Below, piece by piece: positions 36,301-42,300 of a DNA stretch of 64,000 nt. Origin of the DNA: Escherichia coli (GTDB lineage Bacteria; Pseudomonadota; Gammaproteobacteria; Enterobacterales; Enterobacteriaceae). A program made the position numbers. The stretch lies in the NCBI RefSeq assembly GCF_045037415.1, contig NZ_CP173438.1; one strand, written 5' to 3'. Every line of letters begins with the position of its first letter. The stretch's first letter is position 1.

Positions 36301-39300
36301 ATGGCGAAGAGCCGATTAAAGAGCACCTGCTGTTAACGCGCTATAACCCAGGCCGCGTAAGCAGAGGTGACATGCTGAGCATGGAAGATGTGCTGGAGAT
36401 CCTGCGCATCAAACTCGTCGGCGTGATCCCAGAGGATCAATCAGTATTGCGCGCCTCTAACCAGGGTGAACCGGTCATTCTCGACATTAACGCCGATGCG
36501 GGTAAAGCCTACGCAGATACCGTAGAACGTCTGTTGGGAGAAGAACGTCCTTTCCGCTTCATTGAAGAAGAGAAGAAAGGCTTCCTCAAACGCTTGTTCG
36601 GAGGATAAGTTATGGCATTACTCGATTTCTTTCTCTCGCGGAAGAAAAACACAGCCAACATTGCAAAAGAACGGTTGCAGATTATTGTTGCTGAACGCCG
36701 TCGCAGCGATGCAGAACCGCATTATCTGCCGCAGTTGCGTAAAGATATTCTTGAGGTCATTTGTAAATACGTACAAATTGATCCTGAGATGGTAACCGTA
36801 CAGCTTGAGCAAAAAGATGGCGATATTTCTATTCTTGAGCTGAACGTGACCTTACCGGAAGCAGAAGAGCTGAAATAAGCCCCCTGTAAAAGCGCATTTA
36901 TCTTCAAGGCAGAGTCATCTCTGCCTTGAGTTTTTCATCCCTCTCATCCACGTTGTGGTAAAGCGGCGAGTATTCTTGCTGATACTACTCATTGCTATTT
37001 CCCCCCCCTTTACACCTTAAGGCTGTTCCCACGCACAGAACAAAATGTTTACGCCTGGTTGAGTAAATAACCTTATTGTTAGCATGGGTATCCAGGGAGA
37101 TGATAACCCGCAATTTCATTATTCATTGTTCTCCAATAGGATGAGGTTTCCCGCCGTAACTGGCGGGCTTTTTTTGCCCCAGAATTTTCCCTTTTAGCAC
37201 CCTGTAAACGAAAACAGCGCCGAAACGCAGTTAATCGTTGATGGTCAGAACGGCCAGTTCACACCGGCCACCGCATTCCACGGGGACTCCACACCGGCAC
37301 CACGGTTATACCCACCCCGAGATGCCCGCTTAACATACTGCTGAATGAGGCTTTAATACCTGCCTGGTATATTCCACGTCTGCCCGACAAATCATTGACA
37401 AAATTACCGTCACTATTCACCTTCACCCGGTTATCATCGACAAATTCTTTGCGCACAGCCGCCTTCAGCCAGGGTTCAATTTCCATACCGTTCCCCAGAC
37501 GCATGTTGTAGCTCAGCGTTGCGCCCAGTTCACGATATATACTGCGGGTATCGACTGATTTCGATTCCATGCATTGGATAAATGATAGTAGCGTCTAAGT
37601 GACCTTAGCTCTGCTGCAACATCAGCCCGCAGGCACCAGACCAGGGGATTCATCCTGAAGAGACAGCGCAAATGTATTGTGTTCACCGCTCATCAAAGAC
37701 ATCATGATGAAATGATGATATCCCGTATAAGAAAGAGGCATTTTTTAAACGCAGTGCGCTGAAGTGTTGTTGGATAAAAAACACTCTTTTCTGATAATAC
37801 TGTCGTACGCTTATTTTTCGACAATGAGGCCGTCCACAAAATAAAATGACTAATGTAATCGTTGCTAATGAATATCTTCTGCTCACATAACAATCACACA
37901 ATAATATTGATAAATCAGATTATCTTACCTTTACAACATTGTATTAACAGCCAATGACACTTCTTGAATAAAAATATTGTCAATCAATGAGTTATTTCTC
38001 ATTTGAGATTATTCTCATTCCCGTAAAAAACATAATTCCTATCATCACAGTCACGCTCATTTTGAATTATCTGAATAATAGCGAGCGTTCTTTAGTTAAG
38101 CAGATCTTAATTGAAGACGAAATTATTGTGTGTGCAACTTACTTAATACCGGACAACTAAGTTGAAGAAAAAAATACTCGCCTTCGGGCTTATCTCAGCA
38201 TTGTTCTGCTCCACGCCAGCAATGGCGGATATGAATCGCACCACGAAAGGTGCATTGCTAGGTGCAGGCGTTGGTTTACTTACTGGCAATGGTGTTAATG
38301 GCGTACTGAAAGGTGCAGCTGTTGGCGCTGGTGTTGGTGCAGTAACAGAAAAAGGCCGTGACGGTAAAAATGCGCGTAAAGGTGCAAAAGTGGGTGCCGC
38401 CGTTGGTGCTGTCACTGGCGTTCTGACCGGCAATGGCCTCGAAGGGGCGATTAAAGGTGCCGTGATTGGCGGTACGGGTGGTGCAATTCTGGGTAAAATG
38501 AAATAAGGAATGATGATGAAAAAATTTGCTTTACTGGCGGGTCTGTTTGTTTTCGCACCAATGACCTGGGCGCAGGACTACAATATTAAGAACGGTTTGC
38601 CATCAGAAACCTATATTACTTGCGCAGAAGCCAACGAAATGGCAAAAACTGACAGCGCACAGGTTGCAGAAATTGTTGCGGTAATGGGTAATGCCAGCGT
38701 TGCCAGCCGTGATTTAAAAATTGAGCAATCTCCGGAACTGAGCGCCAAAGTGGTAGAAAAACTGAATCAGGTTTGCGCTAAAGATCCGCAAATGCTGTTG
38801 ATCACGGCAATTGATGACACCATGCGTGCTATCGGCAAAAAATAATATTTCATATGTTACCGCGTCGATGAATTCGACGCGGTTTTTTAGCTAACGGGCG
38901 GGATCAGAACTTATATTTCAGGCCCACCATCATTGCGGTGTCATTGTAGCCATTATCACCCAGCTGCACGCCCACATTACCCCAGACGCTGGCCGCCGGA
39001 TTCAGATTGCCATTTACGCCATGTTTCATTTCCCCCAGATTACGAGCCCCGTCTTGTTCGACTTTCACACCGTTCATTGAGACAGCAAAATCTTTACTGT
39101 TATGGATCCCGTTCATTTCAACAAAAGGTTCAAAGTCGTCACCGTGCGGACCGCTGTTTTTCTCCTGAGTACGAATAAAGGTGCGGAAACCAAGTCGGCT
39201 CTGGATGTTGTAATTTGCGTCATTCTCAATACGTGAGCCATTGGCTTCCGTGTGCGCATTATGATCGACGCCCATCCAGATGGCCTGTGCCGAGGTCGTT

Positions 39301-42300
39301 CTCAACTGTCCGTTGCTGTCACGCCAGGCATTATGCCCGCCAATTTGACATAGCCAAAGTTGGCTTGAACGCTCCTGTTCAGTTACAGGATCGATATAGC
39401 GCGTTTCACCCGCACGATCGTTCAGACGCGTAACAAAAAGAGTGTTAGCGGCTGCCAGGTTGGCGACGTAACTGCCAGCGTCGGGTCGCAGGACGGGGGT
39501 AGGCGTTTCTGTTGATTCTGAAGTGACATTGGAAAAAAATCACTCTCTACCATTGTATATTTTTGCAATGGGGGCTTTAGTGCCATTTGTTGTAATAGAA
39601 CTTTTTTATATCAATGTTACCTTGTCGAATAGCAACTGCATAACTTCCATCAGCCACAGTTTCAAGTACCACATAATCTAAATTAATATATGCTTTATTC
39701 CCATTAGCATAAGTACCATAGCTATTAATACCATTAGTTGTTATGGAACCACCATTCATTTTTAAATCAGCACGGCTAATAACTTCGTAACTGTTAGAAT
39801 CACAAACTTCATCATCTACAGCATCGACACATGTTCGAGACTCTCCAGGACTTGAACATGCAAGAACTCCTACTGCATTTTCCCCATAGGTAACAATGTT
39901 CGTTTTATCTGTGGTTTCAAGACTGGTGTTATTTTCCACAGTCCCAGAATCATTAACCTGACTTAAAAATCCCGCTGAATATGCCCCCTCGTCTCGACTG
40001 AATTATCACCATTCATAACGATGGTGCCACCAAATTCACTGACTACTGCGCTGGCTGTTATCCCTCCATTTTCTTTGTCAGATACGCTTCCAGAGGTCTT
40101 AATATTGCTATCGCTTATATATAATACTTTGTTTTGGCTATCAACAGAAATACCATAAGATCCATCACCACTAGTCATCACACTGGCATTATTTATATAT
40201 CCAGTTACACCGTCATCCACTTTCACAGCATGGCTTTCGTCTTAAGTGATTAGATACTCTCCATTACTTGTAGAAGTATTATTTTTGATTTCAATCGGTG
40301 ATTCTTCATCGGTTATATAGGAAATTACACTATAATTATCCAACAATTGTGTTACCCACCGCCAGAGCAATAAGTCCTAAACTGAACCCGGGGAGTTTTT
40401 TCAGTTTCATAGATTAACCATCCATTCATTGGATTAACAAATATTCCTGATAAAATAACCTATGAGTTCAGATCACCAAAACGGAGGGCAAAGATAAAAA
40501 CAAAAGCACAATAAATTTAAATAGATAAACAGCGACAATATTTAAATGATAAATAAGTCAGCATTATCATTTTTAGCTTATTTTCATGACATTGATCACT
40601 TTGGGGTAACTATTTTGTTTAACAAATAACTCTTCGACATCAAAATTATCAACAGTTGCCATAGAAATTATTTCACTGATATATAAAACAACTGTGATAA
40701 CACCAGGGTTGACAACTATTTGCACAATAATTCCTTTCCTTCAATGATCCAGGGGTTCACTGCCAGCAACCCATTCAGCCGCATACTGACAGTGAGAAAC
40801 TGAAAGATTAGTGCTGATCCCTGTGGCTGACGAGTCTTTCCCTTAATCGATTAACCAGATTGATCGCCAGCCAAACAAGGGCATTAAGCAAATTTATCGT
40901 CACAAGCACTTCTCCCAGCCCGGTGCTGGGTTTTGCAATAAGGATGACCAGGAGAGTGATCAACATAAATGCAATGGAAAAGATGATATAGAGAGTGAAA
41001 TAATCCAGATTATTACTATTGTTCATGCTACTAATGGCAATCCAGTCAAAACTTTCAAACAATTATAGCAAACAAAAGAATGAACAATAGTAACAAGAGG
41101 CAACGAGCTAATTAGCTGTCTATAATTACACCGTACCATGGCCTTACTGATCAATTTTCACTCAACCACAACCTTCACCTTCGGTTTAGAAAGGATAATT
41201 TTGACCAGGTCGATGTATGTAACAGGTTTATAGAAATAATAACCCTGCTGAAATGTAATATTATTTTGGTTCAGATAGTCAAGTTGTTCTTTCGTTTCGA
41301 CACCTTCAGCGACGATACTGATCGAAAGTTTACGCGCCAGATCCAATACACAATCCAGAATTCGGGTTGATTCTGGGTCTGCGTTGACGCGGCCAACGAA
41401 ACTGTGATCAATTTTTATATAATCAATATGCAGGTCATGCAGATAAGAAAGCCCTGAGTAACCAGTACCGAAATCATCCAGCGCGATGACAAAACCATTT
41501 TCATGCAGAATGTTCAACCGCTGAACCAGACTTTCATCAACATTTAATGGTTCACGCTCGGTGACTTCCAGAACAAGGTTTAAATCGCGGCGGGTAAAAC
41601 TGTCACGGTAATTTAAGCACTCGTCGACAAACGTCGGCGAAACAATATGCGAGGCGCTAAAATTAATCCCAATATGAAAACCTTCCGGCAGTTTACTCGC
41701 GATAGCGTTCATCTGGGTGGCAACCTGATTCATCAGGCTTTGCGTAAGCGGAACGATTAATCCGCATTTTTCAGCAAGTGGAATAAATGCCGCAGGTGAT
41801 ATATATCCACCGTGAGGTTGTTTCCAGCGGGCTAACACCTCAACTCCCCGCAATGTCCCTTCCCGACCATTTACCACAGGTTGGTAAAAAGGGACGATCT
41901 CCCCATTATTTATAGCCCGTCGCAGGATCTCTTCAGGCGTTGCGCTTTTATTGAAATACCTATCAAGAAGGAAGGCAGCGGCGCAGGCGATTAACAGAAT
42001 AAATATCAAAATCCCAAAGCCTTTATCGATAAGTCTGTAGAAGCTAAAGAGACGTTCATTCGCTCGCGCTGGGGTCTACAGATAGCATGGTAGAGAGCAT
42101 CACAAATATCCACGCCGAAGATAAAATTTTCTCCAACTTCATCTAACCTATTAATTATTTAGAACAATGTAGGCAGAATTAAACAAATTAGGCGGGATAT
42201 CAGGCGTCAAGAATGGAAAACGAGCGCTCTCCATTCCTGTTTGCCCTCTGATATTGCGGATATATTAAGAAAGCATAACGCCTGAAATGCTCACTTTGCA

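Follow-up and report, generated by a model that had tools for sequence, protein, structure and literature searches.

Among the closest described systems to the locus reported here are adhesins of the AIDA-I type (AIDA-I, Ag43, MisL and YfaL/EhaC), which are exported by type Va secretion. In this pathway, no passenger reaches the cell surface without Sec targeting and a full 12-stranded barrel. In a 64,000-nucleotide stretch of Escherichia coli DNA (contig NZ_CP173438.1 of assembly GCF_045037415.1; the window, in what follows), two blocks of autotransporter sequence on the minus strand lie near the cell-division genes minCDE and, unlike the described adhesins, both are pseudogenes. They are the long-known ycgI and ycgH, in the extra-deleted form that is typical of phylogroup B2 and sequence type (ST) 131. 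We are highly confident that the region holds two non-functional relics of type Va, AIDA-I-type autotransporter genes, which flank an intact ymgJ/ymgI/ymgG/ymgD cluster (on ymgJ, see below), have decayed stepwise and are now neutral. The feature is already known and annotated, and its history is one of ordinary gene decay with no new system involved. What is new here is the exact map of the lesions, the identity of the intact parents and the status of the lesions as nested lineage markers.

Both pseudogenes are familiar from K-12. K-12 ycgH is listed as 'pseudogene - autotransporter' (PMC4447067) and is treated as a pseudogene that serves as a neutral integration site (PMC9509612). In a full-text literature search on the name ycgH, and not on that of the minE-locus paralogue, no title, abstract or passage covered described a functional study of YcgH. 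The gene order, taken from the annotation by the Prokaryotic Genome Annotation Pipeline (PGAP) of strain SK1144, whose sequence is identical, is pliG-ycgJ-minCDE-[fragment]-ymgJ-ymgI-ymgG-ymgD-[fragments]-ymgF-pdeG-ymgC-ariR-ymgA-ycgZ-bluF. The order in K-12 is the same, with the annotated pseudogenes ycgI (b4521) and ycgH (b4491) at the two fragment positions, and PGAP, in a genome with the same sequence as the window, likewise calls both remnants autotransporter pseudogenes, either frameshifted or incomplete. Orthology with the K-12 pair is borne out by shared synteny (minE-ycgI-ymgJ-ymgI-ymgG-ymgD-ycgH-ymgF-pdeG) and by ~95.6% identity over the aligned bases of both remnants. Many E. coli chromosomes, several labelled O25b:H4-ST131, share the 5-kb stretch around them at 100% identity. 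It is carried at 99% identity or more by 567 records, and 5424 of 5426 complete E. coli genomes match it at 80% identity or more.

Deletions, frameshifts and nonsense mutations made both loci out of genes that were once intact, and the pieces that are left have no usable signal peptide, autochaperone or complete barrel. The intact genes still exist at the same positions in other strains. JCH8249 carries a 2664-bp gene for an 887-amino-acid (aa) 'autotransporter YcgH' (WP_001563811.1) between ymgF and ymgD, as well as an intact 1126-aa gene between ymgJ and minE, whose product PGAP names 'adhesin-like autotransporter YpjA/EhaD' (WP_001550981.1). In PE164, an intact 1108-aa gene adjoins minE and ycgH is frameshifted. 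In 2016C-3878, the ycgH site is occupied by an intact 882-aa alternative allele ('ECIAI39_1904 family', WP_000768535.1).

Pfam finds an AC_1 autochaperone (410-526), a pertactin-like domain and an Autotransporter PF03797 barrel (606-865) in intact YcgH, the AC_1/pertactin-like region as a whole covering residues 410-536. The intact minE-locus protein consists of six AIDA repeats, a pertactin domain, a Pro/Asn-rich linker and a barrel. Barrel and autochaperone regions of these intact homologues give partial matches to NCBIfam models (AIDA-I, MisL, ECSE_1600, YfaL and Ag43). Intact YcgH falls below the curated cut-off of every NCBIfam equivalog model tried (MisL, AIDA-I, YfaL/EhaC, ShdA, Ag43 and ECSE_1600), its best scores being 446 bits against a cut-off of 2335 for ECSE_1600, 431 against 1297 for MisL and 285 against 1200 for AIDA-I; only the generic barrel model TIGR01414 passes. 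Since none of the equivalog models reaches its curated cut-off, the intact proteins are AIDA-I-type relatives and not orthologues of characterised adhesins. The minE-locus gene is a paralogue of YpjA/EhaD (K-12 b2647): true ypjA sits at another chromosomal locus, and the part of the minE-locus gene that was deleted shows ~93% DNA identity to it over 87% of its length.

The larger remnant, ycgH, and its lesions are as follows (positions are those of the window; a caret marks the two bases that meet at a junction).

38904..40410, minus strand: ycgH pseudogene, of whose ancestral 2664 bp (an AIDA-I-type autotransporter gene for 887 aa) 1507 bp remain
40336..40410, minus strand: start and signal-peptide piece of ycgH, with the start codon and 20 codons, ending in TAA at 40338-40336
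40354^40353, minus strand: 11-bp deletion that takes out the AYA cleavage site and, through a frameshift, leads to a stop at codon 25; found in neither CFT073 nor K-12
40244-40242 (TAA), minus strand: nonsense mutation K60*; also in CFT073
~40073^40072, minus strand: 15-bp in-frame indel, a polymorphism and not a lesion because it is also present in K-12 and CFT073
39988-39984, minus strand: loss of 1 bp from a run of G (six in the intact allele, five here), which shifts the frame at codon 150; also in CFT073
~39602^39601, minus strand: 2-bp deletion beside an A6 run, frameshift at codon 279; also in CFT073
39542-39540 (TGA), minus strand: nonsense mutation L300*; not in CFT073 or K-12
39523^39522, no strand assigned: 735-bp deletion of codons 306-551, including the distal passenger and the AC_1 autochaperone/pertactin-like domain, without microhomology; also in CFT073
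39282..39291 (~39291), no strand assigned: 393-bp deletion of codons ~629-759, about the first half of the PF03797 barrel; also in CFT073
38904..39539, minus strand: residual open frame of ~211 codons, in which linker codons 552-628 are fused to barrel codons 760-887 and which ends in KYKF; no signal peptide, half a barrel

Intact YcgH is the ancestral form of this remnant: identity to the JCH8249 gene is 96.1% over the retained bases, and 86-95% at the amino-acid level over the retained segments. In tblastn searches with intact YcgH (E=4e-135, 5e-74 and 5e-53, far beyond chance), codons 1-20 fall in frame -2, codons 22-151 in frame -3, codons 150-278 again in frame -2, and codons 280-311, 552-628 and 760-887 in frame -3. 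An earlier reading of the window by a model, made without database searches (the sequence-only reading), had described passenger segments scattered across frames, and these two alternating frames agree with it. It had also placed a start with a complete signal peptide at ~40409, running at once into a stop. The start (at 40410) and the stop hold, and the signal peptide is not complete. The frame reads MKLKKLPGFSLGLIALAVGNTIVG before the stop at 40338-40336, and it agrees with intact YcgH at 100% over the first 20 codons; the intact allele keeps the A-Y-A cleavage site (MKLKKLPGFSLGLIALAVGNAYATQ...), which the 11-bp deletion has removed. The end of the barrel in KYKF at 38904 is as that reading gave it: an open reading frame (ORF) at 38904-39305 (133 aa) ends in ...GLKYKF, with its stop ending at 38904, and matches PF03797 (E=5e-9) and the NCBIfam ECSE_1600 model (down to 1.5e-37). 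Its figure of ~1.5 kb for the intact gene was too low, the actual length being 2664 bp (887 aa), and resequencing cannot restore an intact ORF of ~1.5 kb because the DNA has lost 1128 bp of passenger and barrel that are essential.

The locus also differs between strains in ways that do not involve the window's lesions. K-12 ycgH occupies the same position, between ymgF and ymgD and convergent with ymgD, with the same start, the same ...KYKF end and ~95.7% nucleotide identity over shared bases. Both copies are non-functional, but the K-12 gene is full length (2648 bp), has none of the window's lesions and owes its inactivity to a stop at codon 512 and to the loss of 1 bp near the 3' end, at nucleotide 2589. 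CFT073 ycgH has an additional 1-bp insertion of its own. At the level of alleles, the ycgH locus comes in two sharply divergent passenger types, the YcgH type (L006, 8676-11339) and the ECIAI39_1904 type (L003, 4347-6995). The 882-aa ECIAI39_1904-type protein is 100% identical to the YcgH type over the first 20 residues and 94.5% identical in the barrel, but only 28-42% identical in the passenger. This mosaic suggests that the passenger may have been replaced by recombination. About a third of the sampled records matched the ycgH query over the barrel end only, as the ECIAI39_1904 allele does. The window remnant derives from the YcgH-type allele and not from the ECIAI39_1904 type.

The smaller remnant, ycgI, consists of two features.

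37245..37587, minus strand: ycgI pseudogene, the C-terminal beta-barrel strands (final ~114 codons) of a 1126-aa autotransporter paralogous to YpjA/EhaD, from blastn against JCH8249, tblastn and a five-strain alignment
37587..37588, no strand assigned: junction of a ~3.07-kb deletion with at most 1-2 bp of microhomology, from junction analysis

The orphan beta-barrel fragment that had been noticed downstream of minE (37259-37570) is genuine. This ORF (minus strand, 103 aa) matches PF03797 (E=2e-10, profile positions 164-254 of 255) and TIGR01414 (E=3e-14), that is, the last third of an autotransporter beta-domain; the full remnant at 37245-37587 also takes in the part beyond a frameshift and the ancestral stop. 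With the intact minE-locus protein as query, tblastn recovers codons 1019-1105 and 1105-1126 in two frames. The remnant is thus the C-terminus of WP_001550981.1, with 82-97% aa identity over the two aligned segments and 114 of 1126 codons left. Against JCH8249, window positions 36600-37587 align to the minE side, and the alignment resumes from 37587 after a gap of 3072-3073 bp. The deletion cost the parent gene its first 3036 bp, along with 36 bp ahead of the start, and left 343 bp. Two further 1-bp deletions lie near 37575 (common to CFT073) and in a G-run near 37310 (absent in three other aligned strains), and one such 1-bp deletion shifts the frame ahead of the terminal NWSF motif. K-12 ycgI is the same barrel remnant (343-345 bp) with the identical junction next to minE. 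Its own secondary 1-bp deletion lies in GAAATTGAA, whereas those of the window differ, one being common to CFT073 and one seen only in the window among the aligned strains. Two decayed autotransporter loci, degraded by frameshifts and deletions, had been proposed for this region, and the proposal is upheld, each remnant mapping to a different intact gene at the same position elsewhere.

Measured against what type Va secretion needs, neither remnant is complete. By alignment and inspection, ycgH has no Sec signal peptide with a cleavage site. Its passenger is interrupted by two nonsense codons (K60* and L300*) and by the deletions of 1 and 2 bp, and codons 306-551, with the autochaperone, are gone. 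Of the PF03797 barrel (~255 profile positions) it keeps positions 139-254 only, although the terminal aromatic KYKF is retained. In ycgI, signal peptide, passenger and complete barrel do not occur in one ORF. Without Sec targeting or a full barrel, and given what is known of type Va secretion, we infer that both genes are dead. No observation contradicts their status as pseudogenes.

The spread of the lesions was followed with junction probes in the collection of 5426 complete E. coli genomes. For the ycgI junction, a 50-bp probe with the junction at its centre, for which no megablast seed is possible unless the junction is present, matched 4590 genomes (85%), and the junction is the same base for base in the window, K-12, CFT073 and WCHEC035125. 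A copy of the deleted minE-locus stretch is held at 95% identity or more by ~450 records. The 735-bp junction was found in 1037 genomes, including Nissle, and the 393-bp junction in 1042, including E2348/69; in CFT073, direct alignment shows both deletions. For the 11-bp junction the count is 565 genomes (10.4%), all of them 100% identical and including ST131-labelled strains. The lesions, which had been taken for strain-specific markers, are therefore nested at the level of the species (ycgI deletion, 85%), the phylogroup (735- and 393-bp deletions, ~19%) and the clone (11-bp deletion, 10.4%).

Two observations touch on these probes. An exact 28-nt probe for the ycgI junction, searched against one genome per species, gave a single match, to a metagenome contig, and none to Escherichia relatives or even to the E. 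coli representative; one single-nucleotide difference abolishes an exact match. The contig, URTG01000020.1 ('uncultured Clostridiales bacterium UMGS1323'), holds 618 bp of the E. coli ycgI region at its end (8920-9537), with 49% G+C and 95.6% identity to window positions 37162-37776, joined in the portion fetched to ~8.9 kb at 63% G+C. Almost certainly the assembly is chimeric or the bin contaminated. In addition, four plasmid records have the B2-type ycgH deletion junctions, so that copies of the region occur on plasmids or on replicons labelled as plasmids.

The decay went in steps. In their intact state, as in JCH8249 and PE164, both genes show the parts usual for the family: a Sec signal peptide is followed by a passenger, then by a segment of the autochaperone or pertactin-like kind, and at the C-terminus by a beta-barrel. 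In one ancient, blunt-ended event ycgI lost ~3.07 kb, which held its promoter-proximal leader and start codon, the signal peptide with the passenger, and most of the barrel; this fell either before the major phylogroups split or was followed by spread between phylogroups through recombination. In ycgH, the start is kept, whereas the signal-peptidase site (11 bp), the autochaperone region (735 bp) and half of the barrel (393 bp) are lost, and two frameshifts and two stops have come in. K60*, the 1-bp and 2-bp deletions and the two large deletions, all five common to CFT073, probably arose in the B2 lineage, and the 11-bp deletion and L300* later, in the ST131-like clone of the window. In some members of this clone the insertion sequence IS1 has since entered the remnant. 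The full-length ycgH of K-12 was inactivated separately. Within the 5-kb stretch, IS1 or IS903B is inserted in several genomes that elsewhere match the window at 100%, and in TUM11356 (NZ_CP135656.1, 655-1352) IS1 sits inside the ycgH remnant, a sign that decay continues. The large deletions are blunt and illegitimate: the three large junctions show only 0-2 bp of microhomology, which rules out a repeat-mediated origin.

The remnants now change as neutral DNA does. Between the window and K-12, substitutions affect 4.4-4.5% of sites in the remnants and 3.5-7.1% in the intergenic DNA of the region, against 0.4-1.6% in minC, minD, minE, ymgG and ymgD. In the ancestral frame, the ratio of nonsynonymous to synonymous substitution rates (dN/dS) of ycgH is 0.67 between the window and CFT073 and 0.41-0.50 against K-12 or the intact allele; in minC, minD, ymgG, ymgD and the retained part of pdeG it is 0-0.08. 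Evolution of the ycgH remnant is relaxed and near-neutral.

Several points nonetheless weigh against two neutral relics. The ycgI remnant has a dN/dS of 0.24 between K-12 and the window, lower than expected for an old pseudogene, although the numbers are small (8 synonymous and 7 nonsynonymous changes); transition bias, or recombination and gene conversion from intact alleles or from the ypjA paralogue, could account for it. PGAP calls two passenger fragments within ycgH, at 39577-39939 and 39963-40226 (minus strand), separate 'hypothetical proteins' (WP_001295988.1 and WP_001295987.1). Most likely these calls are annotation artefacts, and they should be treated as such. The ycgH promoter region of K-12 is bound by sigma-S RNA polymerase (PMC4447067), and given this binding the remnant may still be transcribed. 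Finally, we infer the secretion pathway and the adhesin function of the intact proteins from their family membership, and the adhesin function is family-based only.

The alternative that survives best, though it is very improbable, is that one or more leftover ORFs have been co-opted as a functional product, the candidates being the 120-aa and 87-aa passenger pieces and the ~211-codon frame of linker and half-barrel. A precedent lies next door in pdeG (ycgG), at 41158-42051 on the minus strand, which has lost its first 630 coding bp and ~41 bp upstream (a 671-bp deletion relative to JCH8249). Its remainder is a 283-aa ORF with a TTG start and the EAL domain only, the 'ycgG2' allele of B2 extraintestinal pathogenic E. 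coli. PGAP marks this truncation as a pseudogene, and its dN/dS against K-12 (0.08) is consistent with retained function. YcgG2 has been shown by experiment to be translated and to act in B2 strains as a stand-alone phosphodiesterase of cyclic di-GMP (PMC6385356), which makes the adjacent truncation a documented functional deletion allele. The PGAP protein calls for both passenger ORFs and the sigma-S binding in K-12 also favour co-option. In a related and similarly slim scenario, the retained ycgH 5' region could still drive transcription, and a leftover ORF or transcript might have been recruited in B2/ST131, for example in convergent or antisense regulation of ymgD/ymgG. Against a co-opted product stand the high dN/dS of the ycgH remnant (0.47-0.67), frame breaks that differ between the window (11-bp deletion and L300*) and CFT073 (1-bp insertion), and the tolerated IS1 insertion. 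The fragments have no signal peptide, neither passenger ORF has a match in Pfam or NCBIfam, and a scan for promoter-like sites found no enrichment over shuffled sequence.

Non-functional relics are also preferred over two explanations that centre on the homopolymers at the frameshift sites, each of them scarcely credible. In the first, mistakes of sequencing or assembly would have put the frameshifts and stops into a gene that is in truth intact, an idea favoured by the position of two small lesions at or beside homopolymers (G6 to G5, and the A6 run). However, many laboratories and platforms produced the 567 near-identical records, CFT073 has the same 1-bp and 2-bp indels at the homopolymers, the 11-, 735- and 393-bp junctions recur in 565, 1037 and 1042 complete genomes, and 1128 bp of the gene would be missing even with every small lesion repaired. 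Recurrence of the junctions (565 to 4590 genomes) and the lesions common to CFT073 rule error out.

In the second, slipped-strand changes at the G and A runs switch a functional adhesin on and off. Some autotransporters, such as Ag43, are phase variable, by a different mechanism, and short homopolymers do lie at the two frameshift sites. Restoring the frame would be useless, however, with the signal-peptidase site, the autochaperone and half of the barrel deleted and two nonsense codons remaining. The runs are short (5-6 nt), the same OFF lengths occur in CFT073, and the 5-kb stretch is at least 99% identical in 567 records. Phase variation is ruled out because essential domains are deleted.

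The region is not the one ancestral adhesin locus of the sequence-only reading but two distinct genes. It is just as far-fetched that a single ancestral autotransporter gene was split by insertion of the ymgJ-ymgD cluster: both fragments lie on the same strand and both have barrel sequence, but JCH8249 has a complete gene on either side of this cluster, at the same sites, and neither gene shares its start, passenger or barrel with the other, which rules a split gene out, and the fragments match different genes in tblastn, each with its own C-terminal barrel end and with intact passenger architectures that differ (an AIDA-repeat YpjA/EhaD paralogue and a YcgH type with AC_1).

The biological weight of two relics is small. 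ST131/B2 E. coli lack two autotransporter adhesins that are still encoded by a minority of E. coli, and the locus offers a worked example of stepwise pseudogene decay. Of more practical use, lineages can be told by the lesions as simple markers: nearly the whole species has the ycgI junction, the deletions of 735 and 393 bp mark ~19% of genomes, including the B2 strains CFT073, Nissle and E2348/69, and the 11-bp deletion marks 10%, including ST131-labelled strains. Surveys of adhesin repertoires that score barrel sequence alone would miscount both loci as present.

Two further sets of features lie between the remnants.

37622..37886, minus strand: upstream leader region of the former ycgI parent, with a 39-aa hypothetical ORF (37622-37741) and ymgJ (37702-37886), from PGAP on the identical SK1144; same order in strains with the intact gene
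37987..38845, plus strand: intact small genes between the two wrecks, ymgI-like (37987-38160), ymgG (38162-38506) and ymgD (38510-38845), from annotation

The ymgJ gene (~37702-37886, minus strand) is frameshifted in a genome identical to the window and intact in K-12, JCH8249 and PE164. Relative to K-12, ymgG and ymgD have zero nonsynonymous differences, and a terminator scan places a terminator-like hairpin at 38859-38883, after ymgD.

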